The notes under the pieces were generated by a model that did not search any database, was not told where the DNA came from, and was given only the letters and a program-made list of their open reading frames with translations. Below are positions 5,834 through 41,696 of a DNA stretch of 64,000 bases, one piece after another (the stretch's first letter is position 1; the number at the start of each line of letters is the position of its first letter). The DNA is from Candidatus Omnitrophota bacterium (GTDB taxonomy: Bacteria; Omnitrophota; Gorgyraeia; Duberdicusellales; 4484-171): contig JBAZGN010000001.1 in assembly GCA_041652815.1 (NCBI GenBank), positions 182,315 through 246,314 of the forward strand. Reading direction: 5' to 3'. A program made the translations under genes and the position numbers.

Positions 5834-6025
5834 TCTACCCCGTGGATTTCGTGGATTTACTGATATTGTAACCGTTTTCAAATGTTCTTAAGATATAGCA
5901 TTTTAATCAAAGAATGTCAAGTCGAAAATTTAAGATTTTTGTAACTTACTAAGGTGCAGTAACTTATGAAGTAGGAATTTATGTGCGTTTAATTCAAAGG
6001 CTCTTTACCCCTTGCGCCCAGATAT

Positions 6026-6066
6026 CGTGTGAATTTTCTCGGCCTGCGGCCAGGAAAATTCACACG
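6026..6066 (-). promoter_or_regulatory. Perfect 13-bp stem / 15-nt loop hairpin in the tpsB-tpsA intergenic region
   Basis: cgtgtgaattttc-[tcggcctgcggccag]-gaaaattcacacg; the loop itself contains the palindrome ggcctgcggcc. No U-tract follows on either strand. Confidence 0.5.
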
Positions 6067-6085
6067 AAGCGCTGCGGGGTTAATT

Positions 6086-6132: not shown

Positions 6133-7842
6133 TTAAAACCGCCAGCTGAACTCAACCCAAGGATGCGCACGGTTGCCATCCGAAGGAAGCTTGCCGAGCG
6201 GATAACCCATTTCAAATTTCAAAGATAAATCTTTTACGTTAAATCTTACGCCGTATCCCCAACCGCGAAGAGTGTCGCTCTTTTCTTCTCCGGCCTGAGG
6301 GTTGTTAAGGCGGCTGTTCGCCCAGTCATAAAAACAGACCAGCCTTACGGCATCATAAAGCCGGCTTCCGGTTGTAGGCACCATTATGCCTTTAGGCAAA
6401 CCATACACGGGAAACGACCACTCCGCAGAAGAATATATTCCCTTATCTCCCGCAAATTCACCCGGGCCGTAACCACGCACGCTTTGCGCGCCGCCGATTT
6501 GAAACTGCTCTGCCGCGGCTAAATTATAATTGGAAAGCTGCGCGGAATTTTTTAATAAAAGGGATGAAGAAAAAGGCATTGGCTGCAACCTGTAGAAGTT
6601 AAAAACTCCTTTAACGAACTGGCCGCCGGCACCAACGCGCGATGCCTTGGAGTCTTTCGCGGTTAAGCCGCCCCACATACGCGGTATGCCTACGTCTATT
6701 TCAGGAGTAATAATCGTTCTGCCAAACTTATCCGTAATATCAATGTCCAGGCCATTTTTGATAACCCGCATTTCGTCACGGGAAGATTCTGCGCCGGAAA
6801 GATAGTTTTTAATATCTTTATAATCAAAGCCGAAATTATATCGTAAATCAAGTATCCTGTTTTCAAATACGGCCCGGTTTACGAATATACCGGCGATATT
6901 GGCCTTGCCTACGGCACTTAAAGCGCGAAATTCCTTTCCCAGCACCAAACGGCTATAAGAATAATAACCGCCGATTTCTGTTTTTTCGTTTACCGGATAG
7001 ATATATCTTACGTTTTTTAAGCTATAAAGGCTTTTTTGCGACATTTGATATTTAAGGTACAACTTGTCATCAAATCCCAATAAATTATTATTTTCATAAA
7101 CAAATGCCCATCGGTTTTTTTCCATATAGCGGGAACCGAAATTATCATAGTCAAAACCTATATGTATGGGGAGCCTATCCTTTACCTCTATTACTATGTC
7201 GGTTGTGCCGGGCTCAACACCGGGGACTAAAATGGCTTTCGCCATTCTGTCGGGGTTTTCATTTATATAGGTAAGAGAATTTTGGAGGATATCGTAATCG
7301 AAGTAATCTTTCGGTTTAAGTTTAATTTTTTTTTCCAACAAAGATGTGCGGAAGTAGCGGTTTCCTTTAATATCGATTTTACCCACTTTGCCTTCAATAA
7401 TTTTTATTGTCAGAATACCGTCTTTAATGGTCTGCGGCGGAAGATAGGCGCGGGAAGTGGTATAACCTTTCTTTCTATAGCTTTCGGTTATTTTATCGGC
7501 AATCTTCTGCATTTCAGAAAGAGCCAGGTCTTTGCCTTCATATCCGGAAACTATACCTTTTAACTCCTTCTCTGAAAGCAAGGTAGCGCCTTCAACGACT
7601 ATTTTCTTTATCTGGACTTTTTTGGTATCTGCAGGCAGAGGCGCTTCCTTAACGGGTTCTTCTTTAATTTCCGGCTTTTTCTTTTTCGTTTGAATTTGCT
7701 GCTCGATTGCCTTTTGCTCTTCAAGGGCTCTGTCACGCTGTTCAGTAGCTCCTATTGTCTGCGACGGCGGCACTGTTTGGGCAAATGCGCCAAAAGATAA
7801 GATAATTATAGCAGTAAAAATTGAAGCGATTTTTAAGTTCAT
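6133..7842 (-). CDS. TpsB outer-membrane transporter of two-partner secretion (ShlB/FhaC/HecB family: POTRA + beta-barrel)
   Basis: 569 aa with a signal peptide (MNLKIASIFTAIIILSFGAFAQ), a K/E-rich linker and POTRA-like region, and a C-terminal barrel ending in an aromatic (WRF). It lies immediately upstream of the TpsA gene on the same strand. Confidence 0.75.
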   Translation of the reverse strand: MNLKIASIFTAIIILSFGAFAQTVPPSQTIGATEQRDRALEEQKAIEQQIQTKKKKPEIKEEPVKEAPLPADTKKVQIKKIVVEGATLLSEKELKGIVSGYEGKDLALSEMQKIADKITESYRKKGYTTSRAYLPPQTIKDGILTIKIIEGKVGKIDIKGNRYFRTSLLEKKIKLKPKDYFDYDILQNSLTYINENPDRMAKAILVPGVEPGTTDIVIEVKDRLPIHIGFDYDNFGSRYMEKNRWAFVYENNNLLGFDDKLYLKYQMSQKSLYSLKNVRYIYPVNEKTEIGGYYSYSRLVLGKEFRALSAVGKANIAGIFVNRAVFENRILDLRYNFGFDYKDIKNYLSGAESSRDEMRVIKNGLDIDITDKFGRTIITPEIDVGIPRMWGGLTAKDSKASRVGAGGQFVKGVFNFYRLQPMPFSSSLLLKNSAQLSNYNLAAAEQFQIGGAQSVRGYGPGEFAGDKGIYSSAEWSFPVYGLPKGIMVPTTGSRLYDAVRLVCFYDWANSRLNNPQAGEEKSDTLRGWGYGVRFNVKDLSLKFEMGYPLGKLPSDGNRAHPWVEFSWRF

Positions 7843-10724: not shown

Positions 10725-11663
10725 ATGGTTAAATTAAAAATAATGGTCGTTGACGACGACCCTGATATTTTGGAACTTCTCAAGGCAACCCTGGAAGAAG
10801 AATACGAAGTTATCAGTGCCGCCCTTGGCAACGAAGCTATAGAAAAATTAAAAAGCCAGGTGCCTGACCTATTGGTTTTAGATTATATGCTTCCTGACAT
10901 TCAGGGGCCGCAAATATGTAATATTTTAAGAAAAGACCCGCTGCTTGTGCATTTGCCCGTGCTGATGCTGACCGGCAAAGGAGAAATCGAAGATAAGGTA
11001 AAAGGGCTTGAGTCAGGTGTTGATGATTATATGGTAAAGCCTTTTTCACCGCAGGAGCTTACTGCGAGAGTGCGAATGCTTATACGGCGGTCGAATATCA
11101 ATTTAGACGCAAACCCTTTAACGCGGCTTCCCGGAAACGTTTCAATAAACCGCGAACTGGATGAAAAGATAAAAAGCAAAGAAAAGTTTGCCGCGCTTTA
11201 TATCGATTTGGATAACTTCAAAGCGGTAAATGACTACTACGGCTTTGAAAGAGGCGACGAGGTAATAAAAGAAACCGCCCGCATTTTAATCGATGCCATT
11301 TCAAAAGAAGGCACCACAAAAGATTTCATCGGCCATATCGGCGGAGATGATTTCTTTATCATAACCTCTCCGGAAAAGGGCGAAGAAATAGCAAAAAAAA
11401 TAATAAGTGATTTCGATAAAGTATCTCCCAAATTTTTTGATGAAAAAGACAGGATAAAAGGCTTTATCGAAACAAAGGGGCGTGACAACGAAATACATAA
11501 ATTCGGATTTATTACTATCTCTGTGGGAATAATAACCAACTTATACAGAGAGTTCACGCATACCGCACAAATAAGCTCGCTCGGAGCAGAAGTTAAGGGG
11601 TTTGCCAAAAAATTCGCTCAAAGTAAATATATTTTCGACAAAAGAACCGAGCAGAAATACTGA
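10725..11663 (+). CDS. Response regulator: REC domain fused to a GGDEF-family domain with non-canonical GGDDF signature
   Basis: REC motifs (MVVDDDPDILELL, phospho-acceptor in LVLDYMLPD, MLTGKG, KPF). GGDEF-domain motifs are NPLTRLPGN, DLDNFKAVNDYYG, RGDEVIK, then GGDDF where GG(D/E)EF is expected. Confidence 0.8.
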   Translation: MVKLKIMVVDDDPDILELLKATLEEEYEVISAALGNEAIEKLKSQVPDLLVLDYMLPDIQGPQICNILRKDPLLVHLPVLMLTGKGEIEDKVKGLESGVDDYMVKPFSPQELTARVRMLIRRSNINLDANPLTRLPGNVSINRELDEKIKSKEKFAALYIDLDNFKAVNDYYGFERGDEVIKETARILIDAISKEGTTKDFIGHIGGDDFFIITSPEKGEEIAKKIISDFDKVSPKFFDEKDRIKGFIETKGRDNEIHKFGFITISVGIITNLYREFTHTAQISSLGAEVKGFAKKFAQSKYIFDKRTEQKY

Positions 11664-11754
11664 ATACGAATTACCACGAATTTGAAACGAATTGCCACTA
11701 ATTAAAACCTATTTAAATAGTTCCAAAAAATAAATATAGTTGTCAGAGTAACGG

Positions 11755-12581: not shown

Positions 12582-12665
12582 GCGAGAGTGGCGGAATTGG
12601 CAGACGCATTAGCTTGAGGGGCTAACGGTAGCAATACTGTAGGGGTTCAACTCCCCTCTCTCGCA
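12582..12665 (+). tRNA. tRNA-Leu (anticodon GAG), type II with long variable arm
   Basis: Folded by hand. Acceptor stem gcgagag/ctctcgc with discriminator A. Anticodon stem ttagc/gctaa with loop ttGAGgg (U33, G37). Variable-arm hairpin cggta-gcaa-tactg. T stem agggg/cccct with loop ttcaact. CCA is not encoded. Confidence 0.85.
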
Positions 12666-12668
12666 TGT

Positions 12669-12745
12669 TTTATTTATTAACGTTTAGCGGGTAACGTATA
12701 GTATTGAATTACTAAACGCTCTACGCTAAACGTTAATAAAATGGT
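12669..12745. terminator. Dyad-symmetric element between convergent tRNA-Leu and rex (putative bidirectional terminator)
   Basis: ttaacgtttagcg ... cgctaaacgttaa, a perfect 13-bp inverted repeat, flanked by tgttttattta on the tRNA side and taaaatgg on the rex side. Confidence 0.45.
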
Positions 12746-13410: not shown

Positions 13411-13575
13411 TTATTAAATAACCAATAACCAAGATACAAGATACAAACAATATTCAAATTCCAATAACCAATGACCGAACGGAAACATTGATTTTTGTTT
13501 GATTATTGAGATTTGGTTATTGGTCATTGTTTGGTTATTGTATCTTGGAGCTTGGTTATTTCTCCAGCTATTTTA
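13411..13575. repeat. Copy A of a ~150-bp palindromic 'ggttattg/caataacc' intergenic repeat family
   Basis: aataaccaataaccaagatacaagatacaaacaat ... attgtttggttattgtatcttggagcttggttatttctccagctat. The last ~45 nt are identical to copy C (32.2 kb). It lies between the hypE stop and the rex start. Confidence 0.7.
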
Positions 13576-13590
13576 ATTATTTATGGGTTG

Positions 13591-14601
13591 TTAGCATATG
13601 CGGGGCAAGTTAAACGAGTGTGAGAAATCAAGGATTCGCTCTCCTCCGGAAACTGTTTCAAGCACGACACCTTTTACGTTATCATCTATCTCTCCTATTA
13701 TTGATGCGGATTTGGAGGTTTTCTTTAAAAAATTTAAAACTTTCCTTGAAATTTTATCCGGCACAATAAGAACCGCTCTTCCTTCGCAGGCAAGATAATA
13801 AGGGTCTATTCCTAATATTTCGCAGGCAGCTTTCACGTCGCGCCGAACCGGTATATTTTCTTCGAAAATTCTTATTCCTTTTTTGCTTCCTAAATAGATT
13901 TCATTTAAAACGCTCGCGATTCCTCCCCGCGTTGGGTCACGCATAAAATTAATTTGCGGGAATTTCATCCATAGTGAAGTAACCAGCTTTTTTAAACTCT
14001 GACAATCGCTTTTTATGTTAAATTCGAAAATCTTTTTACGGCTGAGCATAACGCTTATTCCGTGCTCGCCGATTGAACCTGTAACAATTATCTTATCTTT
14101 ATTTTTTATATTTTTAAAAGAGGGGTTGGCATTCTGTATTTTTTCCCCTATGCCTGATGTGCTTATAAAAATTTTGTCTGCTTTTCCACGTTCAACCACT
14201 TTAAAGTCTCCGCTTACTATATCAACCTTAGATATGCGGGAGGCCAGATTTATTGAATTTACTATTCTTATAAGGTCGGATTTTAAAAACCCCTCTTCGA
14301 CAATCATGGCTAAACTTAAATATTTAGGGATTCCTCCACTAACACAAATATCGTTTACTGTGCCGAAGACGGAAAGTTTACCTATGTCGGAACCGGGGAA
14401 AAATATAGGGTCTACAGTAAAAGAGTCACAGCTATAAACAAATTTTCCTATGGTTGCTGCATCTGTTAACTGCGCAAGGATAGGATTAGAAAGTTTCTTT
14501 AGGAAAACTTCTCTAATTAAATTGTAGCTCGCTTTCGTGCCTTCGCCGTGTTTTAGGGTTATAATTTCTTCGTTCATAATATTTATAAGTAGAAGGAGCA
14601 A
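13591..14601 (-). CDS. hypE: [NiFe]-hydrogenase maturation factor HypE
   Basis: PurM/AIR-synthase-like fold. The C-terminus ends in PRIC, the HypE carbamoyl/cyano-carrying cysteine motif. Confidence 0.85.
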   Translation of the reverse strand: MLLLLINIMNEEIITLKHGEGTKASYNLIREVFLKKLSNPILAQLTDAATIGKFVYSCDSFTVDPIFFPGSDIGKLSVFGTVNDICVSGGIPKYLSLAMIVEEGFLKSDLIRIVNSINLASRISKVDIVSGDFKVVERGKADKIFISTSGIGEKIQNANPSFKNIKNKDKIIVTGSIGEHGISVMLSRKKIFEFNIKSDCQSLKKLVTSLWMKFPQINFMRDPTRGGIASVLNEIYLGSKKGIRIFEENIPVRRDVKAACEILGIDPYYLACEGRAVLIVPDKISRKVLNFLKKTSKSASIIGEIDDNVKGVVLETVSGGERILDFSHSFNLPRIC

Positions 14602-14612
14602 CTAATTGATCC

Positions 14613-14683
14613 TAGATGCCAGATGCTGGATGCTCGTTGTCCTTGTTTTTTACGAGTATCAAGCATCTAGCATCAAGCATCTA
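14613..14683. repeat. Intergenic dyad element built from 'agatgc' words
   Basis: tagatgccagatgctggatgctcg - ttgtccttgttttttacgag - tatcaagcatctagcatcaagcatcta. Confidence 0.5.
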
Positions 14684-14686
14684 TAT

Positions 14687-15355
14687 TTAAACCTCTCTTC
14701 CTTTTACTCTTTTAAGGGCCTCCACAGAAACCCCTATATCCGCCACATATATTTTACCACAAAGCTTTGGCCCATCATTTAACAAAAATCCTTTTTTCGG
14801 GGCGATAAAAGTGATTGTATAGTCTGCTTTTACTGCCTCTCCTAATATAACTCCGCTATCCGGGGACAACCCCGAAGGAATATCGCAGGAAATTATTTTC
14901 TTTCCGCTTTTATTTATATCGCGGATTATTTTTTTAAGGAAAGTAGAAAGCTCGCCCTTTGTACCTATTCCCAATATACCGTCTAAAATAAAATCAGAGG
15001 CTTTGAGGTATTTTTTAAATTCTTCTACGTTAGCCGGGTCAATTACGTATACAGGGATTTTTATTTTATCTAAAAGTTCTTTCTGAAATTTTACCTCCGC
15101 ATTAAAATCTTTTTCTTTCAAAACTACAGCGTAAACTTCGTAATTTTTGGCGGCGAGCTTTCTTGCACAGGCAAGCGTATCCGCGCCATTATTTCCTCTA
15201 CCCGCAACCACACATACGCTTTTACCCAGCTTCAAATTATCTATTATAGCCGCTAGATTGCTGGAAGCATTTTCGATAAGAAGCCTTTCGTTAAGGCCAA
15301 TCTTTTTGGCAGCTTCTTCCAAATGCCTTATTTTTTTTACAGAAAGCCCTTCCAT
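14687..15355 (-). CDS. NAD(P)H-hydrate epimerase, YjeF N-terminal domain protein
   Basis: VCVVAGRGNNGADTLACARKL matches the YjeF_N GxGNNGGDG motif. No C-terminal kinase (dehydratase) domain is present. Confidence 0.65.
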   Translation of the reverse strand: MEGLSVKKIRHLEEAAKKIGLNERLLIENASSNLAAIIDNLKLGKSVCVVAGRGNNGADTLACARKLAAKNYEVYAVVLKEKDFNAEVKFQKELLDKIKIPVYVIDPANVEEFKKYLKASDFILDGILGIGTKGELSTFLKKIIRDINKSGKKIISCDIPSGLSPDSGVILGEAVKADYTITFIAPKKGFLLNDGPKLCGKIYVADIGVSVEALKRVKGREV

Positions 15356-15460
15356 TATTTATCGCGGGTTCTAAGTTAAAAATGGCGGTTAAATTTTCTC
15401 TATTTGTAATTTTGGTTATTGTAAATTGTTTGTGGTTTGGAATTTGTGATTTGTAATTTT

Positions 15461-16453
15461 TTAATGAGATTCTTCTTTTCTATCTTTCTTCTTGAAGAGG
15501 TCAAGGAACTTATCTTCATATTCTGTATAAACATTCCAATGGTCAAGCTCGTCTTTAAGCTTTGTGGCTTTGGTTATATCTTTTTGCGATTCCTTGAAAA
15601 GCCCCTCTATTTTTTCTCTGGCAGACTGCGGAAGCTTACTGTAAGCAGCTAAATCTTTTTTAAGTTTTTCTATATCCTCTTCGCTTAAAGGAGTTGAAGT
15701 CGGCTCAGGGACTTCTCCCTTAAGGTAACTTATCAGTTTATCTATTTCTGTTTCGATAAATTTTGCTCTGTCAGTTAAAGGCAAAAGGCTTAAGTTTAAA
15801 CCAAGATAGTCATTTATAATTTTTAAAATGCTTGCGCTGGCTTTTGGATTTTCTATCTGCACGGTATAAAAAGGAATTTCCCCCAAAAGACAAGCACCGC
15901 GAAGGCCGCGGCCTTTTGCAACGCCAAGGATAAGCCCGTTAAGCCCGCTGATTTGGCCTTCTTTCAGGGGCTTGACGCCAAATTTAGCAAATTCTTTTAA
16001 TATTTCGTCATGTGTTGCCACAATTCTTACCGAAGACGGCGTTTTGTGGTCTATAGCTTCAGGCTTTGCGGCGAAAGTAAGTATAAATTTAGCTTTATAT
16101 TTTTTGACAAAATCAATTATAGCGCAAGACAATTCTTCTGCGCGTTCAAGGGGCGGCTGCACTTCCCCCATGAAAAGAATTATGTCCGGTGATTTTTTAC
16201 CTTTTACGTAATAGAAAAATCCGGCAGGCATTGAAGGCAATTCCAGTATCCCCTTTTCAACAACCACCGCGGCGGGCTTAAAGAATTCTCCGGATTCAAG
16301 CTTAGCAAACATCTTAAAACCCATTACTTCACGAAGAAATAATACGCTTCTGTAGGCTACCTCTCCCATCCCAGGCCAGGCAGCAATAAAAATTGGGTTC
16401 TTTAATTTTGGAGTTGCTACTTCTTTAATCATTTTTGTTGCACAGATTAGCAC
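15461..16453 (-). CDS. PAC2-family (proteasome-assembly-chaperone-like) protein
   Basis: The N-terminal block IFIAAWPGMGEVAYRSVLFL and overall length and composition resemble PAC2/DUF75 proteins. The C-terminus is acidic and coiled-coil. Confidence 0.45.
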   Translation of the reverse strand: MLICATKMIKEVATPKLKNPIFIAAWPGMGEVAYRSVLFLREVMGFKMFAKLESGEFFKPAAVVVEKGILELPSMPAGFFYYVKGKKSPDIILFMGEVQPPLERAEELSCAIIDFVKKYKAKFILTFAAKPEAIDHKTPSSVRIVATHDEILKEFAKFGVKPLKEGQISGLNGLILGVAKGRGLRGACLLGEIPFYTVQIENPKASASILKIINDYLGLNLSLLPLTDRAKFIETEIDKLISYLKGEVPEPTSTPLSEEDIEKLKKDLAAYSKLPQSAREKIEGLFKESQKDITKATKLKDELDHWNVYTEYEDKFLDLFKKKDRKEESH

Positions 16454-16569
16454 AGATTTTGAAGCGGATGATCACAGATATTAATCTGTTATCTGTGTTG
16501 TATAATCTATCATAAACTACTCAAAAAACAAGGACGATTTACTTCAGGCTGATAGCTGACGACTGACAG

Positions 16570-18329: not shown

Positions 18330-18680
18330 CTGTAATATATTATCACAGAGGGTTAAAAAGGCAAAGTGGGGTGTTGGAAATTGGTTGGTGAAGTTAATTA
18401 CCCCTCGCGCCTGAATATCGTATAAATTTTCCACGCTTGTTTCACAAGCAGGAAAATTTATACGAAGCGCTTCGGGGGTGTTTTTTTGCTGCCCGAAGGA
18501 CAGCAAAAAAACACCCTGCCATCAGTCCGTCTCAGGCTTGCTGCATACAGTCCGTTTCTCATACAAGTGGGTGCTTCATCCTATTCGCCTCAGCGAAAGG
18601 AAATTCAGCTCCCGTGTATTAGGTGTTGGCTGTAGCACTTTAACCTGTTGACGCAACAGGCAGGGTTAATTTTCCCTTTC
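18330..18680. ncRNA. GC-rich, highly structured non-coding island (candidate small RNA or leader; identity unknown)
   Basis: 490 bp without a credible ORF in an otherwise densely coding, AT-rich context. Nested perfect hairpins: aaccctctgtaatatattatcacagagggtt; cgtataaattttcc-[acgcttgtttcacaagcag]-ggaaaatttatacg; mutually exclusive cttcggg/cccgaag versus gggtgtttttttgctg/cagcaaaaaaacaccc. On the minus strand, the segment from ccctgcctg to caggg (~150 nt) closes on itself. Confidence 0.35.
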
Positions 18681-20256: not shown

Positions 20257-20280
20257 TTTGCCTCCTTATTGATTTGCGAT

Positions 20281-20550
20281 AACGTCTCTCGGTTACGGTT
20301 ACGATGCCCGTTTCGTCTTACGGTTACGTTTTACGTTTCAATTAAAATAACCAATAACCAAGGTACAAGATACAAACAATATCCAAATTCCAATTACCAA
20401 TAACCAAACAAAAACGTTTGGTTATTGAATTTTGGTTATTGCTCATTGTTTGGTTATTGTTTCTTGTATCTTGGTTATTTATTTCCATAGGCGTTACCGC
20501 TAAACGTAACCGAAACGGGCTTCGTTGCCGTTACCATAGCCGCTATCAAA
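20281..20550. repeat. Copy B of the 'ggttattg' palindromic element, nested inside an outer 'cggttacg' inverted repeat (total ~270 bp, near-perfect dyad)
   Basis: Outer arms are cggttacggttacgatgcccgtttcg and cgaaacgggcttcgttgccgttacc. The inner part is aataaccaataaccaaggtacaagatacaaacaat ... attgtttggttattgtttcttgtatcttggttatt. Confidence 0.7.
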
Positions 20551-25226: not shown

Positions 25227-25389
25227 AACAGAAATTATGTTACCGCTTCGGCTTTAGATTTGCAACGAGAAAGTATCACGTATCAGGTAACACGCAACAG
25301 GCCTTTAAAAACGTGATACGTCCACTCCAAGTGGACTCGCCTAAATGTTTTTATATGGTGGCGAGGTTACGTGCGACGTGATACCTAAT

Positions 25390-26541
25390 TTATAATCTGC
25401 GCAATAACACAAGCGTTTCAAGGTGAGGAGTGTGCGGAAAGAAATCAAATGGCTCAATGAATTCCGGCTTGTAGGCGACGGACAATTCTTTAAGGTTTGC
25501 AAAAAGCGTATCGGGGTTACAGGAAGAATAGAATATGGTTTTAGGATTCAGCCGTAAAACCGCTCTTATTATTTTGTTGGATAAACCGGGGCGCGGAGGG
25601 TTAATGATTAAAACATCTATATCCTTATAAAAAGTGCCTTGGGTGTTTAAAAAAGCTCTCGCGTCAGCGGTAAAGAAAGAAATATTTTCGATATTGTTTT
25701 CTTTGGCATTCTGCCAGGCGCAGTCAATTATCGCCTGTGAAACCTCTACTCCCCAGACGAACTTTGCCATACCGGCAAGAAAGATGCCTATCGAGCCGCC
25801 GCCGCAAAAAAGGTCCAAAACTTTTTCTTCTTTGCTAAGCTTAGCGTAATCTCTTATTTTTCCATAAAGATTTCTTATCGCCAGCGGATTGACCTGGAAG
25901 AATGAGTCAATTGCGATTTTGAATTTGAATTCATCCAGTTTTTCTTCGATGAAAGGTTCTCCAAAGAGTAACTCCTTCTTTTCGAATATAACTGCATCAG
26001 AAATAGAATCATTAACGATACGATAAACTGATTTTAGGGTTGAATTGAGGTTTAACCTTTTAAGCATACTAGTAAAACCATCTTTATCCAATTCTTCGCT
26101 GCTTGTCGTAACCAAGCCAAGCATCAGTTCATTTGTGAATTTGGTTTCCCGCATAACGAGGTTTCTTAAGAAACCTTTATGTGAAAACTTGTTATAAACG
26201 GAATTCCCTTTCATTGTAAAGAAATCTTTGACTGCTTTTAGCACGATTCCGGCATCCTTTGAAAAAATAAGGCATTCGGAAACATCAATCAATTCTCCAT
26301 GGCTTCCTTTTTTATATAAACCACAAGTAATCCCTTCGTTTCTCCCGAAGCTAAATTCCATTTTATTGCGGTAGAACCATTCTTTATACGAATTAATCGG
26401 TTTTAATTCACAGTTAATTCCATATGCCAACATTAACTCTCTTATGCTTTCCTCTTTACAAAGCATTTGCACAGAATAGGAAATATCCTGAAAACTGCAT
26501 CCACCGCATTGCCCAAAATGTTTGCATATGCCTGTTCTCAT
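25390..26541 (-). CDS. 23S rRNA (uracil-C5)-methyltransferase, RumA/RlmD family (no TRAM domain)
   Basis: N-terminal Fe-S cysteine cluster CKHFGQCGGC, SAM-binding DLFCGGGSIG, and the catalytic region PPRPG...SCNP. Confidence 0.75.
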   Translation of the reverse strand: MRTGICKHFGQCGGCSFQDISYSVQMLCKEESIRELMLAYGINCELKPINSYKEWFYRNKMEFSFGRNEGITCGLYKKGSHGELIDVSECLIFSKDAGIVLKAVKDFFTMKGNSVYNKFSHKGFLRNLVMRETKFTNELMLGLVTTSSEELDKDGFTSMLKRLNLNSTLKSVYRIVNDSISDAVIFEKKELLFGEPFIEEKLDEFKFKIAIDSFFQVNPLAIRNLYGKIRDYAKLSKEEKVLDLFCGGGSIGIFLAGMAKFVWGVEVSQAIIDCAWQNAKENNIENISFFTADARAFLNTQGTFYKDIDVLIINPPRPGLSNKIIRAVLRLNPKTIFYSSCNPDTLFANLKELSVAYKPEFIEPFDFFPHTPHLETLVLLRRL

Positions 26542-28234: not shown

Positions 28235-28414
28235 AATTTTTTTGCACAGATAAAGGTTGCGTTAATCGGTTGCGGTTACGCTACTCGTTACGTCCATCGT
28301 CAATCGGTTGCGTTTGGAAGACGATAGACGATTAACGCAGCCGAAACTAGTGGCGCAACCGCAAGACGTATGACGATATGCTGAATCTATGATCATCTGC
28401 TATCTTACCTGCGA

Positions 28415-29548
28415 TCATCTGTTTCTAAAATATTCATCCAGCCCTCTAACATACTCTTCCAAAACTTTTATGCCTTTATCCAGATTAGCTATTTTAACTG
28501 ATTCATTTTTTGCGTGGGCGTTTCCTTTTGAGCCGAAACCGAAAGCAAAAGATTCAATCCCGATATCTTTTAAGAAGGTTATTACAGTTGCGCCAAAACT
28601 TGGGGCTATTTTTCCTTCTATATTATTTTTTTTAAGAACGCTGCGCAATATCTTAATCACCGGAATATTTTTATCTATCTCAAGCGGGCTTTGATGAGCC
28701 AATATTTTTATTTTATATTTTATTTTCTGCTTCTTTATTATTTTTTCTATATTCTTTATAATCTCTTTCTCCTTCATTTTCGGCAGGTATCTTATATCTA
28801 TATCGAAAAAAGCGTAGCCGGCAACTATATTTACTTTATCTCCTCCGACGAACCTTCCTATATTTAAAGTGGGTTTCTTTAATAAAGTATGCGTAGCAAA
28901 CGGAAACTTTCTTTTTAAAATCTCATTTAGTATAAATACTCCTTTCTCTACTGCATTTATTCCTCTCTCCGGATATGCTCCGTGCGCCTCGCGTCCAGTG
29001 AGTTCAACTCTCAGATGCAGGAGCCCTTTTTGTGCAACAACAATATCAAACTCGTCAGCATCTAACACAATTGCATAGTCCGCTCCTTTTAGATGTTTCA
29101 CAAGCGGAATTATACCGTTGTGGCTGCCGGTTTCTTCATCGCCGGTAAAGGCAAAAACCAAATCGATGTTTTTGAGAGTTGTTTTTTCTTCTTTTAGTTT
29201 TTTTATGAGATAAAGCGCAGCTGCCACATTAATTTTACAATCAGTTGCGCCTCTGCCATACATTCTTCCTTTATATATTTTTGCAGAAAGCGGAGGCACG
29301 TGCCATTTACCGTTTGCCGGCACTGTATCAACGTGAGGAGTAAACAGAATCTTTTTCTTTGGATTTTTTGAAGTTAATTTACAGACTAAATTGAGCCTGT
29401 CTTTTTTAAATTCATAAATTTTAGAAGCAATACCCAAGCTTTTAAGATAGTTACGGATGAAATAAATTATCTTTCTTTCGTTACCCGGGGGGTTTTGTGA
29501 ATCTATCTTAATTAGTTTTTGAAGCAAATTTATCGGGCTCTGTTTCAT
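28415..29548 (-). CDS. M20-family metallopeptidase (ArgE/DapE-like deacylase)
   Basis: HVDTVP, GRGATDCK, a dimerisation domain, and a C-terminal metal-ligand block. Confidence 0.75.
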   Translation of the reverse strand: MKQSPINLLQKLIKIDSQNPPGNERKIIYFIRNYLKSLGIASKIYEFKKDRLNLVCKLTSKNPKKKILFTPHVDTVPANGKWHVPPLSAKIYKGRMYGRGATDCKINVAAALYLIKKLKEEKTTLKNIDLVFAFTGDEETGSHNGIIPLVKHLKGADYAIVLDADEFDIVVAQKGLLHLRVELTGREAHGAYPERGINAVEKGVFILNEILKRKFPFATHTLLKKPTLNIGRFVGGDKVNIVAGYAFFDIDIRYLPKMKEKEIIKNIEKIIKKQKIKYKIKILAHQSPLEIDKNIPVIKILRSVLKKNNIEGKIAPSFGATVITFLKDIGIESFAFGFGSKGNAHAKNESVKIANLDKGIKVLEEYVRGLDEYFRNR

Positions 29549-31481: not shown

Positions 31482-31490
31482 ATTTTAAAC

Positions 31491-31567
31491 ACGAATCACC
31501 ACGAATTTGGAACGAATTGCCACGTCCCGCCCTTTAATATTTTTATTAGCGTGACGTGGCAATTCGT
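31491..31567 (-). promoter_or_regulatory. Phased ACGAAT x3 direct-repeat array merging into a 15-bp-stem hairpin, immediately 5' of the PilZ-fusion start codon
   Basis: ACGAATcaccACGAATttggaACGAATtgccacgtc-[26 nt]-gacgtggcaattcgt. The repeat spacing is 10 and 11 bp. The start codon is at 31481. Confidence 0.45.
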
Positions 31568-31569
31568 GT

Positions 31570-31749
31570 CCTAAGCTTTATATAACAGATTTTTTGCGAA
31601 TATGCAAACTTACCCGCGAATCAGTCCCGAGGTAACGTCGTGACGGTTCAGCCACCAAACCAGACCGAAGGTCGATTTAGGGCTGCCCTGAACCGAATTT
31701 ATTCTGGTTTAGGGCGGGGTTACGTCCATTACTACCAAGCAATAGAGCT
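31570..31749 (-). ncRNA. GC-rich structured 5' leader of the PilZ-fusion gene; candidate riboswitch (c-di-GMP-I/GEMM-like similarity noted, unverified)
   Basis: A 268-bp gap between co-directional genes with locally elevated GC. Read on the minus strand, GGACGUAACCCCGCCCUAAACC resembles the GGACGCAAAGCC...CCUAAACC core of GEMM-I aptamers (Vc2-type); this is recalled from memory, not searched. Confidence 0.3.
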
Positions 31750-32133: not shown

Positions 32134-32174
32134 GTCGCCTCACTCCATTACACAGATTACACAGATGTTTTATA

Positions 32175-32320
32175 AAATAATCAATAACCAAGATACAAGA
32201 TACAAACAAATCTCAATATCCAATAACCAAACGAAGATGTTGGTCATTGTTTGGTTATTGAGATTTGATTATTGGTCATTGTTTGGTTATTGTATCTTGG
32301 AGCTTGGTTATTTCTCCAGC
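32175..32320. repeat. Copy C of the 'ggttattg' palindromic repeat family
   Basis: aatcaataaccaagatacaagatacaaacaa ... attgtttggttattgtatcttggagcttggttatttctccagctat. The 3' end is identical to copy A. Confidence 0.7.
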
Positions 32321-32325
32321 TATCG

Positions 32326-34692
32326 CTAATAACTATTTGTGATTATCTGTGTTTTTTCCAAAATCGCTTCTTCCTTTAAAAGATAAAATATTTCTTCCAT
32401 ATTCTTCTTAAATTCTTTATATTCAGCCGGCTCGATGAACCTTTTAATTACATCAAACTCCCTGTATATATCTATTGAATTTTCATTTTGACTGCATACG
32501 GATTTGAACTTAAACCATGGGGTATTGATTTCTTTGCTTGTAGGAAGAAATTTTACCTGTAAATTCTCCGGCAGGTTTATTTTTATTTTTGATGCTTTTT
32601 TAAATATACCTTCAAACTCTATCGGGAAATTCCTTTGTTCTTTACCGGCGTAGGAAGTATCTATGTCTATATCGTCAAAAAAAGGAAGTATTCTTAAGCC
32701 ATTCGCAGGGTTTAAAACTTTTTTGGCACTGAATGAATACTGTAAAGATGCGTCTTTATCAAAATCATCCACGTTACCCGCATTATATTTTATGAGTTTG
32801 GAAAACGGGCTTATCTGAACCATTCTTTTTTGTATGTCGTCTTTCAGGACGTCCGGATGCGTGTACTTTAAATAGTAACGCTGAATGCTCGCAAAAAAGC
32901 CCGTAGCTGTTATTTTTCTGTTAATTATGGCGTCTTCATTCCTGTCGATATCTATTTGCATCTCATAAAATACCTTGTTTTCTTCCAATACCGGCGTTGT
33001 CGTAATTTCATATTTGTTGTCTAAAATCACAAAGACATTTCTCTCCTGGTCCGAAAGCGGAATGTCCGAAAAACTAACAGTTGAAGCTGTCGCATCCATA
33101 AAAATCATTTTTCCTTCGTATAAAAGAACAGCTATTGCATGGTTAAAATTAACGCAGGGGAAATCTTTTTGCATTTGATAAATTTCTCTTGTCGAAATAA
33201 GAACCGGGTAAGCCTTAAGGCCAGATTCTTTCATCATCGCAACTAAAAGTATGGCTTTATCTTTACAATCGCCGTAACGGTTTACGAAAATATCATTTGC
33301 ATAATGCGGCTCGTAACCGCTTTCACCGTATTCAACGGCAACATAGCGCACATTACGGGAACAAAAATCATAGATTCTTTTTGCTTTTTCTAGGTCATCC
33401 TTTGCATCTTTTATGAGGTTTGCCGTAAATTTTTTTACTTCTTTATTCAAGACTATTTTGTCTTTATAAAGGCTGTGCCACCATTTATAAATTTCTTCCC
33501 AACTTGAAAAGTTAGATATGCCTATTGCCGGGTTAATAATGGAAATCGAAGGCATTGGCTCTTCCGGGATAATCGGCTCAAGCTCTTTGAATTTCCACGA
33601 ATAGATAATAGATTTTTCTGTTTCTTCTTTTACCGGCTTTAAATTTATTCCTTTAGCATACGCTTCGTTGAAGAACTTTAATTCTACCTTGTTTTTCCTG
33701 GGCACGGTAAGCTTAAAATTAGCTTTTGCCAAAGGATATGCTTCCCGCAGGCGGTATATAAAACTGAACTTGCCGTCAGTGATTAACTTTGACGAATAAA
33801 TTTTGAATTTATATTCTATTATAGAACCAATATCAACCGAAGGCATGGAAATTATAAGAGCCCTGGCATTGCTATAAAGAGGAAAATTAAGGTATTTGGT
33901 GACATCCCTTGTATTCTCATCTCCGGCATAAATTACTCGTCCGCTAGGGGTAATTGTCCGGGCATATTCAAGCTCAACTCTTTCGTAAGTTGAATCATAG
34001 CCGATTTCTACCTCTGCCAGGTCTTTCCCTTTTTCTTTTAAAACTTTCTGCGCCACATAAACGTTCGCTACAGAAGTATTATCATCTTTTATCTGGTGGT
34101 CTTCATCTACGAACAAAACCACTGCCTCTTCTTTGTCGATACTTGAAATAAATTTTTGCTCCTCCTGAAGAAGCGCCTTTAAAGATTGCGGCATTCCCTC
34201 TTCTACTTTAAGCCCTATTTTTGAAATACGCTTTTTTGCTTGCGGCTCAAATTCACCTTTAACCTTGCTGTAAATTGCAATCGCCTTTGGATAAAGATTC
34301 TTCGATTCAAGGGTTGCCGCGTACAAATACATATACTCGCTGTCAACGGTTTCTCCAACCTGGTCAAAGATATCTAAGGCGTTGGAATATTCTTTGAGGC
34401 TTGCGTATGCCTTGGCAAGCATGATTTTTGCTTTTACATCAGTTTCGTTTTTAAGCAACACAACCACCTTTTCAAAATCTTTGAAATCGTAATAAATTTG
34501 TGCTAATTTTATACGCAAGCTCAAATCCTTCGGGTTTTTGCTGATAAGTTCTTCATAATATCGAGTCTCTTTTTTATAAATTTCGTGCAGTGTCCCGGGC
34601 TCATATTTACAGCCGCAAAGAAAGATAAATAAAGATAGCCATAAAAATAGGCCTTGGGTTGGAACAGACGTTTTTTTTGTTATTACTTTCAT
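32326..34692 (-). CDS. Transglutaminase-like cysteine-protease superfamily lipoprotein with N-terminal TPR and DUF3857-like region
   Basis: Lipobox LFIFLCGCKY, TPR repeats, and the transglutaminase core YGDCKDKAILLVAMMKESGLKAYPV with the catalytic Cys. Confidence 0.7.
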   Translation of the reverse strand: MKVITKKTSVPTQGLFLWLSLFIFLCGCKYEPGTLHEIYKKETRYYEELISKNPKDLSLRIKLAQIYYDFKDFEKVVVLLKNETDVKAKIMLAKAYASLKEYSNALDIFDQVGETVDSEYMYLYAATLESKNLYPKAIAIYSKVKGEFEPQAKKRISKIGLKVEEGMPQSLKALLQEEQKFISSIDKEEAVVLFVDEDHQIKDDNTSVANVYVAQKVLKEKGKDLAEVEIGYDSTYERVELEYARTITPSGRVIYAGDENTRDVTKYLNFPLYSNARALIISMPSVDIGSIIEYKFKIYSSKLITDGKFSFIYRLREAYPLAKANFKLTVPRKNKVELKFFNEAYAKGINLKPVKEETEKSIIYSWKFKELEPIIPEEPMPSISIINPAIGISNFSSWEEIYKWWHSLYKDKIVLNKEVKKFTANLIKDAKDDLEKAKRIYDFCSRNVRYVAVEYGESGYEPHYANDIFVNRYGDCKDKAILLVAMMKESGLKAYPVLISTREIYQMQKDFPCVNFNHAIAVLLYEGKMIFMDATASTVSFSDIPLSDQERNVFVILDNKYEITTTPVLEENKVFYEMQIDIDRNEDAIINRKITATGFFASIQRYYLKYTHPDVLKDDIQKRMVQISPFSKLIKYNAGNVDDFDKDASLQYSFSAKKVLNPANGLRILPFFDDIDIDTSYAGKEQRNFPIEFEGIFKKASKIKINLPENLQVKFLPTSKEINTPWFKFKSVCSQNENSIDIYREFDVIKRFIEPAEYKEFKKNMEEIFYLLKEEAILEKTQIITNSY

Positions 34693-35031: not shown

Positions 35032-36180
35032 TTATAATTTCTTCAGGAAACGTTCTATTCTTATTATTGCTTCTCTAAGATTATCCAGCGTATTGGCGTA
35101 AGAAATCCTGACATATGAGTCGTATTCTTTGCCAAAAGCTGTGCCCGGCACCAAAGCGACTTTCTCTTCAAAAAGCAAACGCTTTGCAAGCTCAAGTGAA
35201 CTTATCTTAAACTTTTTTACTGAAGGGAAACAATAGAATGCCCCCTCAGGCATAGGCATATTCATCCCTAACCTGTTTAATTCCTTAACGATAAAGTTTC
35301 TGCGCCGCTTATACTCATTGCGCATCTCTAAAACATCTTTCTGCGCTTTTAAAGCCTCAACCGCGGCAACTTGCGAAATAATCGGCGCACACATCATCGC
35401 GAAAGAATGAATCTTCGTCATCGCCTCAATGATTTGTTTGTTTGCGCAGGCATAACCCAACCTAAAACCCGTCATAGCATAAGCTTTTGAAAAGCCGTTT
35501 AAAAGTATTGTTCGCTCTCTGGCTCCTTCGTCAAGCGAGGGAAAAGATTTTGTTTTACCTTCATAGATAAGCTCATCGTAAACTTCATCGCTAATGACGA
35601 TTGTGTCCTTGCTTTTAATCTGTTCCCAAATTCTATAAAGTTCTTTCGCATCATAAGCAGCGCCTGTCGGGTTAGAAGGATTATTCAGAATAATCGCTTT
35701 AGGGTTCGTTTTAAGCGCTGCTTTTAATTTCTTAATGTCTATTTTAAAATTATTTTCCTGCGTGGTTGGGACATAAATCACGCTGCCCCCGGCAATTTCT
35801 ACCAGCGCCGGATAAGCGACAAAATGCGGGCTAATAACAATAACTTTGTCGCCTTTAGAAATAATAGAGCGGATAGCTAAATCAAGGCCCTCGCTCACCC
35901 CTACGGTAATTAAAACTTCTTCTTCCGGGTTATATTTTAAGGAGTGCCTTTTTTCCATAAAATTAGAAACCGCTTCCCTTAAAACAAAAAGGCCTTTGTT
36001 GGAGGTATAAGAAGTCATTCCCTCTTCAAGCGCGGTGATAGCTCTTTCTCTTATGCGCCAGGGCGTAACAAAGTCTGGCTCGCCCACGCCTAAAGATATA
36101 ACTTCGGGCATGCCGAGCACTAAATCAAAAAACTGCCTTATTCCTGAAGGCGCCAGGTTTTTAATGTGTTTTGAAATCAT
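35032..36180 (-). CDS. Class I/II PLP-dependent aminotransferase (aspartate/aromatic aminotransferase-like)
   Basis: NPSNPTG, SKAYAMTGFRLGY (the PLP lysine region) and overall fold-type I layout. Confidence 0.8.
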   Translation of the reverse strand: MISKHIKNLAPSGIRQFFDLVLGMPEVISLGVGEPDFVTPWRIRERAITALEEGMTSYTSNKGLFVLREAVSNFMEKRHSLKYNPEEEVLITVGVSEGLDLAIRSIISKGDKVIVISPHFVAYPALVEIAGGSVIYVPTTQENNFKIDIKKLKAALKTNPKAIILNNPSNPTGAAYDAKELYRIWEQIKSKDTIVISDEVYDELIYEGKTKSFPSLDEGARERTILLNGFSKAYAMTGFRLGYACANKQIIEAMTKIHSFAMMCAPIISQVAAVEALKAQKDVLEMRNEYKRRRNFIVKELNRLGMNMPMPEGAFYCFPSVKKFKISSLELAKRLLFEEKVALVPGTAFGKEYDSYVRISYANTLDNLREAIIRIERFLKKL

Positions 36181-36300
36181 GGTTTAGTTTTTAGTTCTAA
36201 GTTCTAGGTTCTAAGTTCTAGGTTTTAAGTTGTGGGTTATAAGTTTTTCCCAAATTTGTTAGCGTTGGGTTTACCTTAGAACTTACAACTTATCACTTAG
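36181..36300. repeat. Intergenic dyad element built from 'gttctag/gttctaa' words
   Basis: tagttctaagttctaggttctaagttctaggttttaagttgtgggttataag ... cttagaacttacaacttatcacttagaacta. Confidence 0.5.
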
Positions 36301-36302
36301 AA

Positions 36303-36788
36303 CTAATATGTTATTGCCAACCGTTCGTTTTTCTCTTTTTTTGTCAGGATTACTCCGTCTTCCTTATATTTCTTAAGCATAAAGTGGGTAACTGCTCCTT
36401 TTACCGAACTTAAGGGAGCAAGCTTCTCGGAAACAAAACTTGCTACTGTATGGATGTCTTTACCCTCAACTGTTAAAAGCAAATCATAGGTTCCTGAAAG
36501 AAGATAGCAGTTTTTTACTTCCGGAAACTTGAATATCCTTTCCGCTACCGCGTCAAAACCTACATCTTTTTGCGGCGTTATTCTTACCTCGATTAAAGCG
36601 ACTACACCGTTTGCACCTTTAAGTTTTTCTTTATTTATTACCGCTTTATATTTTACTATTATTCCTTTTTTCTCGTAATCCTTTATCGCCCTTTCAATTT
36701 CTTTTTTGCTTTTACCGGTAAGTTTTACTAAATCTTCCAAAGGAACACGTGCGTTAGTTTCCAATATTTCTAATATCTCATCCATATT
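36303..36788 (-). CDS. Lrp/AsnC-family transcriptional regulator
   Basis: HTH_AsnC N-terminus MDEILEILETNARVPLEDLVKLTGKSKKEIERAIKDYEKKGII and a RAM domain. The likely start is the internal Met at 36788. Confidence 0.8.
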   Translation of the reverse strand, partial: NMDEILEILETNARVPLEDLVKLTGKSKKEIERAIKDYEKKGIIVKYKAVINKEKLKGANGVVALIEVRITPQKDVGFDAVAERIFKFPEVKNCYLLSGTYDLLLTVEGKDIHTVASFVSEKLAPLSSVKGAVTHFMLKKYKEDGVILTKKEKNERLAITY

Positions 36789-36943
36789 AACCTCCGTTTT
36801 TGCACAGATAATCACAGGTACGAAACAGATGATCACAGATTGTTTAAAAAGTAGCACGTATTAAGTAACAGGTATCACGTTTTAAAAAACCTGTTACCTG
36901 TTACTTGCTACGTTTTACATAATCTGTGTATAATTGTATCAAA

Positions 36944-40728: not shown

Positions 40729-40877
40729 TTTGCTTTTTTATTACGCAGATGATCGCAGATGCAAAACAGATGATCGCAGATAAGAAGATAGAAATACAAT
40801 TGTATATCTACTGTATTTCCACCGTATTTCTATCGTATATCAATTACAGTGAAATTTATCTGTGAACATCTGTGTTA
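40729..40877. repeat. Intergenic dyad element built from 'cagatgatcgcagat' words
   Basis: acgcagatgatcgcagatgcaaaacagatgatcgcagataag ... atctgtgaacatctgtgttatc. Confidence 0.5.
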
Positions 40878-41696
40878 TCAAACGATTTCCACATCAAGAA
40901 TGCGGTTTAAGCTAATGCGGATATTTTTACCCTGTTTACTTTCATACCACAGAAAAAAACTTTTGTTTTCCTGGGAAAGATTAAGCGGCTTTATCACATC
41001 GCTTTCCATCATATTTTGATGAGAAAGATACCTTGCTTTTAGAGACAATTTCCCTTCAATCGCTTTTTTAACCAGATGGAGTTTTGGCTCTTCTTTAATT
41101 CTAAAGATTTCGTTGTTCAAGCCATAAAGCGATATAAAATCTTCCAAATTGTCCAGGCTACTTTCTTTTAATATGTCTCTTAGCTTAAAAAATGCTTTTG
41201 AGGCGACATAAGCATCGTCCATAGCGCGATGCAATTTACCTGGACATTCTATATTAAAGTATGAAACAATTTCGCTTAAGTTGTATCTAGGTAAACGCAA
41301 AGTCTTTCTTGCCATGCAAAGTATGTCTATGGCAGGAAGCTCCAGCGGCTGCTTGTTCATCTGCTTTAATCTGTAATTTATAAATCCCAGGTCAAAATCA
41401 ATATTGTATGCCAGGATTATTGAATCTTTCAAAAAATCAACGAATTTGTCCGCGATATCTTCGAAATAAGGTGCGCCCTTTAAGTCTTCATCGCAAATCT
41501 GATGTATTCTGAAAGCTGTCTCAGGCATGCTTTTTTTGGGATTTACAAGGCTGTGAAATTTATCTATAGCCTCGCGGCCTTTTATTTTAAGAGCACCTAT
41601 CTCGCAAATAGAGTCTCCGGCAAGCACATCAAGCCCGGTTGTTTCTAAATCGAAAAATACAAGATTAAAATCTTCTATGTTCTTCTTTAAATCCAT
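40878..41696 (-). CDS. DEDDh 3'-5' exonuclease domain protein (DnaQ-like) with a C-terminal extension
   Basis: Exo I FFDLETTGLD, Exo II and Exo III HRAMDDAY. Confidence 0.65.
   Translation of the reverse strand: MDLKKNIEDFNLVFFDLETTGLDVLAGDSICEIGALKIKGREAIDKFHSLVNPKKSMPETAFRIHQICDEDLKGAPYFEDIADKFVDFLKDSIILAYNIDFDLGFINYRLKQMNKQPLELPAIDILCMARKTLRLPRYNLSEIVSYFNIECPGKLHRAMDDAYVASKAFFKLRDILKESSLDNLEDFISLYGLNNEIFRIKEEPKLHLVKKAIEGKLSLKARYLSHQNMMESDVIKPLNLSQENKSFFLWYESKQGKNIRISLNRILDVEIV

Follow-up and report, generated by a model that had tools for sequence, protein, structure and literature searches.

Heptad-word palindromes in messenger RNA spacers of an Omnitrophota bacterium: a probable form, without open reading frame, of cassettes resembling rRNA intervening sequences

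Introduction

In a stretch of 64,000 nucleotides (nt) from a Candidatus Omnitrophota bacterium (GenBank assembly GCA_041652815.1, contig JBAZGN010000001.1, positions 182,315 to 246,314 of the forward strand; in the following, the window), three spacers between protein-coding genes are occupied by copies of one imperfect palindrome, here called A, B and C. The question raised by this locus is what these copies are and what they do between the genes that they separate. In an initial annotation they were described as a family resembling miniature inverted-repeat transposable elements (MITE) or REP/BIME elements, likely to supply a terminator for the upstream gene and a promoter or operator for the downstream gene. 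The comparisons reported here lead to another answer. On balance, A, B and C are probably the short form, free of an open reading frame (ORF), of a family of cassettes built of 7-nt words, which resembles the intervening sequences (IVSs) of rRNA genes and is dispersed among the spacers of messenger RNAs.

Structure of the three copies

The three palindromic copies of the initial annotation could be recovered and their limits were refined as follows.

13416-13561, minus strand: copy A, a 146-nt imperfect palindrome (repeat search, fold and family profile, 128 bits)
13562-13571, minus strand: 10-nt extension of copy A, in sense ATAGCTGGAG, continuing into the palindrome as ATAGCTGGAGAAATAACC
20345-20481, minus strand: copy B, a 137-nt palindrome (family profile, 122 bits)
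32175-32313, minus strand: copy C, a 139-nt palindrome (family profile, 116 bits)
32314-32323, minus strand: 10-nt 5′ extension of copy C, the same as in copy A (exact identity of A and C)

In the repeat search of the window, the copies were found as the direct-repeat families D1-D3 and contain the inverted repeats I3, I4 and I11. Each consists of two arms of 65-70 nt that are about 70% complementary. The pairwise identity is 85.8% for A and C, 83.0% for A and B and 78.9% for B and C. The terminus shared by A and C is present at 13526 and 32278, but it had been quoted with 46 nt, while the exact identity extends over 55 nt (13517-13571 and 32269-32323) and reaches 10 nt beyond the palindrome. 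This 10-nt extension is common exactly to A, C and the relative L181, whose contig begins exactly there, and it marks where, in this lineage, the repeated unit begins on its 5′ side.

Read on the coding strand, each copy starts with a CA-rich arm, which a short loop joins to a TG-rich arm. The 5′ arm contains nine 7-nt words (AAATAACC, AAGnTCC, AAGATAC, AATAACC, AAACAAT, GACCAAT, AACCAAA, TTnCAAT and AACCAAAC) and the 3′ arm, made of TTG-phased words, is its near-complement. The termini are a perfect 11-nt pair (AAATAACCAAG / CTTGGTTATTT). The arms as a whole are not plain reverse complements, as the CCAA/TTGG cores pair and 2-3 nt per word are mismatched, and due to this asymmetry the family profile distinguishes the strands. 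With 116-128 bits on the minus strand versus 65-70 bits on the plus strand, A, B and C share one orientation, which is sense to the flanking genes. At lag 7 the autocorrelation in the arms amounts to 0.45-0.51, compared with about 0.31 for the remaining lags. For the word GGTTATTG, 17 occurrences were counted in the window, where 2.7 are expected and none of 100 shuffles reaches 17, and 12 of the 17 are located inside A, B and C.

Copy A is located between the stop codon of a hypE-like gene (13591) and the ATG of rex (13406), copy B between a DUF4440 gene and an M42 peptidase gene, and copy C between the stop codon of a DUF3857 (transglutaminase-like) gene (32326) and the ATG of a TPR protein gene (32133), the upstream gene being named first in each case. 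Rex, HypE-like, DUF4440, TPR and DUF3857 were assigned with Pfam, the M42 peptidase by contig look-up. Between the element end and the ATG downstream of it lie about 9 nt (A), 89 nt (B) and 41 nt (C). That the copies fill their spacers and have an unusual internal word structure, as stated before, could be confirmed. The region of B is no assembly artefact, since the ENA and JGI assemblies, which are independent of each other, agree with 100% identity over 17-30 kb that include it.

A dispersed family with position and strand bias

The copies are not unique to the window, and the description as a multi-copy dispersed palindromic repeat proved correct: at least 116 metagenome loci match the exact 23-nt arm core. 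A scan of the GTDB species genomes for two TTGGTTATTG words revealed at least 119 stretches in many phyla, including full hairpins in metagenome-assembled genomes of Omnitrophota. Hairpins were also detected in contigs with 53-65% GC that bear the labels Planctomycetales, Acidobacteriota and Syntrophorhabdus; these cannot be mis-binned Omnitrophota. Pure (TTGGTTA)n arrays were found in filamentous cyanobacteria (Microcoleus, Calothrix, Nostoc) and in Cytophagia. A blastn search of copy A against plasmids gave no match.

The 37 full copies that were aligned span 153 columns with a mean column identity of 79% and have an identical order of the nine words per arm. The median length in the family is 136 nt, and random pairs of copies are on average 79.3% identical (5-95% range 72.8-86.4%).

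The element begins at a median of 16 nt past the upstream stop codon and ends at a median of 31 nt before the downstream ATG. In total, 64 co-directional, 10 convergent and 3 divergent spacers contain it, compared with 260, 20 and 34 in the background, so that convergent spacers are over- and divergent ones under-represented (p = 0.013). The constant orientation relative to the flanking genes that had been noticed in the window (3 of 3) extends to the metagenomes, where, of 61 independent co-directional spacers, 49 hold the element in sense orientation (p = 2e-6). The GC skew tracks the coding strand whichever way the element is oriented and was unable to separate replication from transcription.

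Gain, loss and copying among relatives

Relatives of the window differ in which spacers are occupied. The hypE-rex spacer has a length of 33 nt in L122 (92% RarA identity) and 14 nt in L124 (90%), both without copy A, and in L128 (86%) it holds unrelated GC-rich hairpins. Within L122, the RarA-PAC2 spacer aligns nearly base for base with the window and the DUF4440-M42 spacer shares nothing with it. The spacer of copy C is 54, 96, 164 and 1 nt long in four relatives and contains other hairpin families or nothing, but no C. Conversely, in L199 (syntenic, about 72% identity) the family is present in a spacer where the window carries another hairpin. Eight relatives, with 115 kb of syntenic DNA in total, yielded no strong copy. 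The elements of L152 and L166, which lie between unrelated ABC-transporter genes, are 99.3% identical including the loop, and this near-identity is direct evidence of copying.

In L122 (13354-14090), hypE is internally deleted and rex has in-frame stop codons; the pair looks pseudogenised, or the contig is of poor quality.

Association with PF05635 genes

In 1.85 Mb of retrieved loci, all four genes of the family PF05635 (23S rRNA intervening-sequence protein, S23p, Avd-like) are located between a CA arm and a TG arm. In L129, L148 and L227 the exact 5′ (R-arm) core of the family is followed by a ribosome-binding site, the PF05635 ORF and the TG arm, and L242 has the same layout with divergent words. 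The Pfam E-values of the PF05635 ORFs are 3e-18 and 9e-17. Three further homologues, chosen by homology and contig number and not by their flanks, also abut TTG-heptad arrays, which amounts to 7 of 7 metagenome PF05635 genes. Most close Omnitrophota homologues are found on contigs of 0.5-2 kb, as is expected if the flanking arrays break short-read assemblies. On the reverse strand of L129 (about 2045-2170), beside a half element and the PF05635 gene, the word ATACAAG has grown to a tandem array of about 17 copies, hence slippage acts on these words.

For a sample from plasmids, PF05635 was searched in PLSDB by tblastn. This resulted in 29 records, mainly from Nostocales and other cyanobacteria, plus Cytophagia, Chloroflexota, Bacillota and Treponema, and the flanks of 14 genes were analysed. 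All 28 flanks of these 14 genes, which belong to Cyanobacteriota, Bacteroidota, Chloroflexota, Bacillota and Spirochaetota, have a best period of 7, with an autocorrelation (best window) of 0.54-1.00 versus a median of 0.39 in the neighbouring sequence. The arrays are mostly inverted and abut the start and stop codons, e.g., (AATTCGC)4-ORF-(GCGAATT)4 (Nostoc punctiforme WP_012413221) and (TTCAAAA)4-ORF-(TTTTGAA)4. As an unselected control, 50 kb of Nostoc punctiforme pNPUN02 were taken, in which the sole two perfect period-7 arrays flank the single PF05635 gene. The plasmid cassettes are situated within operons, and at 13 of 14 loci both neighbours have the same direction as the cassette, which offers a simple explanation of how the ORF-less form came by its strand bias.

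Regarding their placement, the PF05635 gene lies between cas2 and cas1 in Anabaena cylindrica pANACY.01 (L272) and immediately upstream of cas1 in Pseudanabaena (L275), and others (L278 from Monoglobus, L274, L280 and L276) were found between the partners of HsdS/HsdR, helicase/methylase and RND adaptor/permease pairs. This placement in defence and transport operons may reflect either a tolerated insertion or a functional link. A scan of viral contigs with a PF05635 alignment yielded no confirmed relative.

The PF05635 tie, the 7-nt word phase and some ten further heptamer-phased spacers in the window (see below) are points that go beyond the initial annotation. In the literature searched, no publication was found that links four-helix-bundle genes to heptamer arrays, apart from the report on Coxiella, whose 23S rRNA IVS is a selfish hairpin of 428 nt that is closed by a 28-bp stem at its termini and has an S23p ORF in the loop (PMC4990558). 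Its GACAGAT heptamers, 2-4 in tandem, vary in number, and RNase III excises it (PMC4990558).

RNA folding and outer hairpins

Folding of the whole spacers as RNA resulted in -47.6 kcal/mol for A (z = -6.7 versus shuffles), -107.4 kcal/mol for B with its outer arms (298 nt; z = -10) and -53.0 kcal/mol for C (z = -4.9). Over 37 copies the mean is -48.7 kcal/mol. Variable columns of their alignment map to internal loops, and the CCAA/TTGG cores, which are paired, are invariant. As the folds of both strands are equal (sense -48.7 versus antisense -49.7 kcal/mol), G-U asymmetry was ruled out as the cause of the strand bias. In some copies small GC-rich hairpins are inserted in an arm or in the loop. 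Copy A stays below all gathering thresholds of Rfam, the best matches being generic long hairpins (27 bits versus thresholds of at least 60).

Two copies are enclosed by further arms, for which no strand was assigned.

20277-20339: outer arm enclosing copy B on the M42 peptidase side, CGGTTAC/GTAACG words (fold)
20490-20545: partner outer arm of this CGGTTAC-word hairpin around copy B on the DUF4440 side (fold)
32150-32167: outer hairpin arm of copy C with ACACAGAT words, complementary to ATCTGTG-type words at 32334-32351
32334-32351: partner of the CACAGAT-word outer hairpin of copy C, overlapping the 3′ end of the DUF3857 gene

The nesting of copy B in an outer inverted repeat had been recognised before, and its flank-to-flank duplex (-37.3 kcal/mol) is the strongest among 56 family members. 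The outer hairpin of C is weak (flank duplex -15.1 kcal/mol); its words are common to the relatives L247 and L246 and therefore older than C. A preference for the loops of older hairpins, an idea derived from B and C, was rejected because complementarity of the flanks exceeds the 5% control level in only 5 of the 56 copies.

Comparison with rRNA intervening sequences and proposed mechanism

Like the rRNA IVSs of Coxiella, Leptospira, Salmonella and others, the family consists of hairpins with terminal inverted repeats that form a long enclosing stem, is sporadically distributed and comprises ORF-containing and ORF-less forms. In some family members a PF05635 ORF lies in the loop with tandem heptamers beside it, an arrangement comparable to the GACAGAT heptamers beside the Coxiella ORF, and CACAGAT words are found in the window. 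Unlike rRNA IVSs, the element is not located in the helices of an rRNA gene but between protein-coding genes, a genome holds many copies of it, each arm is a long series of differing 7-nt words in fixed order, and the copies in the window have no ORF. Because all copies lie between protein-coding genes, the element is named IVS-like and not an IVS in the strict sense.

In the long form of the cassette, the two arms enclose a gene of about 115 codons with its own ribosome-binding site, encoding a PF05635 protein, an Avd-like four-helix bundle (PF05635 is homologous to Avd of diversity-generating retroelements; PMC10053308). According to the proposed mechanism, copies would enter intergenic spacers, mostly right after a stop codon and in the direction of the host genes, and their arrival would leave no target-site duplication, the mobilising agent presumably being encoded elsewhere than beside the copies. 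They would be transcribed together with their neighbours. As rRNA IVSs are transcribed within the host RNA and excised by RNase III (PMC4990558), the stem is, by analogy, a predicted substrate of this enzyme. Its cleavage would split a polycistronic RNA between the genes and leave hairpin-capped ends, so that the element would act neither as a promoter nor as a classical terminator.

Several results weigh against this reading. The target-site duplications and the cognate transposase considered in the initial annotation were not found: in 46 of 52 copies no direct repeat adjoins the element, which equals shuffled partners, and neither a transposase nor another neighbour gene recurs in 768 kb of flanking DNA. 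An apparent "recurrent neighbour protein" at 34 loci was an artefact of the repeat being translated inside stop-to-stop ORFs. No target motif was detected at the junctions, where the palindrome just extends to (G/T)A-AATAACC...GGTTATT-T(C), the hyphens marking the junctions. With identities of 79-86%, A, B and C are no more alike than copies from unrelated samples (mean 79.3%); a recent burst has not taken place in this genome. The copy A ortholog upstream of rex in L181 is 97.3% identical versus 78.3% for rex itself, and this conservation looks like sequence constraint (a host function) or recombination and not like neutral selfish DNA; this contig, whose start lies within the repeat, may be chimeric. 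RNAalifold and mutual information revealed no compensatory base-pair changes in the 37 aligned copies, a result that is uninformative and not negative because the repeated words slip the consensus fold into a wrong register. Neither the window nor the syntenic DNA of the relatives contains a PF05635 gene, and A, B and C carry no ORF. The link of the exact family to the ORF comprises 3-4 loci retrieved with an element-derived probe, and in the unbiased samples the association with PF05635 is one of class and not of family. A trans-acting role of the PF05635 protein is hypothetical and, to our knowledge, PF05635 is no known recombinase.

Alternative explanations

A cis-acting RNA element of the host, i.e., an intercistronic stabiliser, partial terminator or attenuator that is immobile, vertically inherited and selected at each site, would account for the strong folds, the position just past stop codons, the depletion between divergent genes, the strand bias (49 of 61) and the conservation of the A ortholog (97% versus 78% for rex). 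Moreover, some spacers are still occupied at 67% flank identity, which points to sequence constraint. However, the closest relatives lack the element in the same spacers and manage with 1-54 nt, the flanking genes are functionally unrelated and near-identical copies lie between unrelated genes. Neither a U-tract signature nor covariation was found, and the sense and antisense folds (-48.7 versus -49.7 kcal/mol) give no preference for one strand. The specific roles ascribed to the copies before did not hold either. For an intrinsic terminator, a GC-rich stem with a U-tract is absent, the stem base being A/U-rich with the tail UUAUUU, and a consensus scan detected no terminator-like site on the sense strand of any copy. 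The sole promoter-like match (TGGAGA-18-TACAAT, 9/12) occurs in A and C, and such matches are as frequent as in shuffles (57 versus 54 expected). Since relatives with the same gene pairs have spacers of 14, 18, 33, 54 and 1 nt without the element, it is not needed as promoter or terminator. A host element of this kind is regarded as unlikely.

A classical MITE would be an internally deleted DDE-type insertion sequence whose terminal inverted repeats are read by a transposase in trans. The perfect termini (AAATAACCAAG / CTTGGTTATTT), the insertion polymorphism and the small, AT-rich, non-coding, multi-copy and intergenic character agree with this. The missing target-site duplications (46 of 52) and the lack of a recurrent transposase in the 768 kb of flanks contradict it; furthermore, the entire element and not only its ends is conserved and word-phased, and PF05635 is the only cargo observed between the arms. 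This origin is considered quite unlikely. In size and as an imperfect palindrome in spacers, the element is akin to ERIC (about 127 bp) and the Correia elements of Neisseria (about 100-155 bp). These are transcribed into hairpin RNA, with orientation-dependent effects and RNase processing reported, and have TA target duplications; a 7-nt phasing or PF05635 cargo is not known to us for either of them.

REP/REPIN-type elements are moved as single-stranded hairpins by a RAYT, an IS200/IS605-like Y1 transposase. Like REP, BIME and REPIN elements of Enterobacteria and Pseudomonas, the family is extragenic and multi-copy, forms hairpins of about 100 nt, lacks target-site duplications and is found mostly 3′ of genes and rarely between divergent ones (PMC3116915, PMC3733652). 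These elements are co-transcribed with their flanking genes (PMC3116915, PMC3733652), which is likewise presumed here. The strand bias could also mean insertion on one replication strand, but the local GC skew cannot tell replication from transcription. A REP is a 20-40-nt imperfect palindrome with a GTAG or CGTC tag at one end, grouped in two superfamilies (PMC3733652). In contrast, the arms of the element are CA-only or TG-only and cannot self-pair, its ends read (G/T)AAATAACC without such a tag, it is heptad-phased and has PF05635 as cargo, and no RAYT/Y1 transposase gene was found in the window, which covers 64 kb of the 810,962-bp source contig, or in the flanks. The likeness to MITE or REP/BIME elements drawn in the initial annotation was thus right in spirit, but the family is a different one, and a movement by RAYT is given a low probability.

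Without any copying, heptamer arrays could arise in situ by polymerase slippage, become palindromes locally and converge in their words. The period of 7 is general, ATACAAG is expanded about 17-fold in L129, many word families coexist in one window, the same vocabulary appears in contigs of other phyla with 53-65% GC, and heptameric simple repeats are over-represented in bacteria, which has been ascribed to slippage (PMC4692102). The STRR sequences of filamentous cyanobacteria share the 7-nt unit, the intergenic location and words such as TTGGTCA and TTGGTTA, and the function of these heptameric repeats is unknown (PMC4692102). They are described as monotonous tandem arrays, i.e., head-to-tail copies of one unit, whereas the words of the element differ, have a fixed order and are mirrored in the second arm; a true expansion was found only in L129. 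In the cyanobacterial plasmids sampled here, the heptamer arrays bracket PF05635 genes, a link that was not found described in the literature searched. Against slippage stand the nine differing words, whose order is shared by both arms and by more than 100 copies, the 55-nt identity of A and C including the non-repeat extension, and the 99.3% identity including the loop at unrelated loci, so that this explanation is very unlikely for this family.

Least probable is an array of binding sites with one 7-nt unit per subunit, i.e., a switchable hairpin bound by a cold-shock-domain RNA chaperone (at the U/G-rich arm) or, as DNA, by a ribbon-helix-helix repressor, for although the heptad phase, the invariant CCAAT/ATTGG cores, the lack of covariation and the heptanucleotide binding site of Bs-CspB (PMC1904285, PMC1636342) fit, the window holds more than ten other word vocabularies, no partner protein could be identified, and CspB binds ATTGG and CCAAT weakly (PMC1904285). 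On account of this weak binding the cold-shock protein (Y-box) idea was rejected.

Further heptad-word spacers and other features of the window

The family of A, B and C is one among several in the window. With 15 of the 31 spacers of at least 60 nt, about half fold with z < -3, and around 11 spacers are heptamer-phased (best period 7 or 14), all of them within 12.5-42.8 kb. The words are distinct in each spacer (AGATGC, TAAGTTC, CGGTTAC, CACAGAT, ACGAAT, GTATCAC, GTCCATA). One spacer contains a solo arm without a partner arm, and a similar solo arm lies in the same spacer of the relative L126.

About 15401-15460, minus strand (CA-rich): solo degenerate CAA/TTG heptad arm in the PAC2-YjeF_N spacer, best period 7 (repeats D12 and I21)

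Word hairpins, arms or arrays are also present at 11663-11698, 12680-12745, 14601-14687, 16450-16510, 25270-25390, 28240-28420, 31488-31575, 36180-36310, 36850-36920, 40735-40880 and 42460-42560. Their unit is about 7 nt, in some cases 9-11 nt, and each has a different vocabulary (ACGAAT, AACGTTTAGCG, AGATGC, CACAGAT, GTATCAC, GGTTGCG/GACGAT, TAAGTTC, GTTAC, CGCAGAT with GTATTTC, and GTCCATA). Several word families repeat within the window (D17, D18, I7), and the GAAATAC hairpin at about 40.8 kb also occupies the copy-C spacer of the relative L246. Unlike the region from 12 to 43 kb, the low-GC part (31-35%) at 43000-64000 has no word hairpins; it is an exopolysaccharide-type cluster with two Wzy_C genes and genes for Wzz/GNVR-AAA_31, a BBP2 porin, TPR and GGDEF proteins.

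A second, GC-capped type of palindrome (CCCCTYGCGCC...GAAAATT...GGCGCTNCGGGG, with an AT-rich inner stem) is located at 5990-6075 and 18400-18480, and a similar one in the hypE-rex spacer of L128 (4740-4810). In the Rfam scan of the window only a tRNA and the 6S RNA reach the gathering threshold. The 6S RNA (RF00013; 47.4 bits, slightly above the gathering score) is located at 18509-18669 on the minus strand, in a 490-nt spacer after a CoA-binding protein gene. The tRNA-Leu(GAG) is located at 12582-12665 on the plus strand, opposite to rex. In relatives, tRNA-Leu is followed by 2-4 units of about 110 nt, each ending in a copy of the tRNA 3′ end (GGTGGCAACAG...CTGTTGACACCACTCGCG; L124 17270-17600, L128 5470-5930, L122 14440-14790), and these units appear to resemble serial integration scars or tRNA-derived repeats. 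A gene for a two-partner-secretion transporter of the ShlB/FhaC type was found at 6133-7842 on the minus strand, and the sequence from 1 to about 5000 is highly repetitive and adhesin-like (families D6, D7, D15 and D16).

Significance

For annotation and assembly, hairpins of this kind have practical consequences: they break metagenome assemblies, with many PF05635 contigs being shorter than 2 kb, they inflate the "intergenic" length, and their translations give spurious protein clusters.

No explanation has been given in more than 30 years for the rRNA IVSs and their S23p ORF ("functionality and origin... remain unclear", PMC4990558), and the bacterial excess of heptameric repeats has no accepted cause (PMC4692102). 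What is new here is that inverted heptad arrays, whether or not they enclose a PF05635 gene, occupy ordinary operon spacers in many copies and in at least 6 of the phyla sampled. A wider proposal, possible but offered only tentatively, would be that PF05635 genes everywhere are the cargo of one unrecognised class of mobile cassettes bounded by inverted heptamer arrays, so that rRNA IVSs, the STRRs of cyanobacteria and the ORF-less hairpins of Omnitrophota would form one system. The Avd-like protein would then read its own arrays, as RNA or as single-stranded DNA, and direct their spread or their excision from host transcripts. The family provides hundreds of natural variants in which the co-variation of protein and words, insertion polymorphism and processing by RNase III may be followed.

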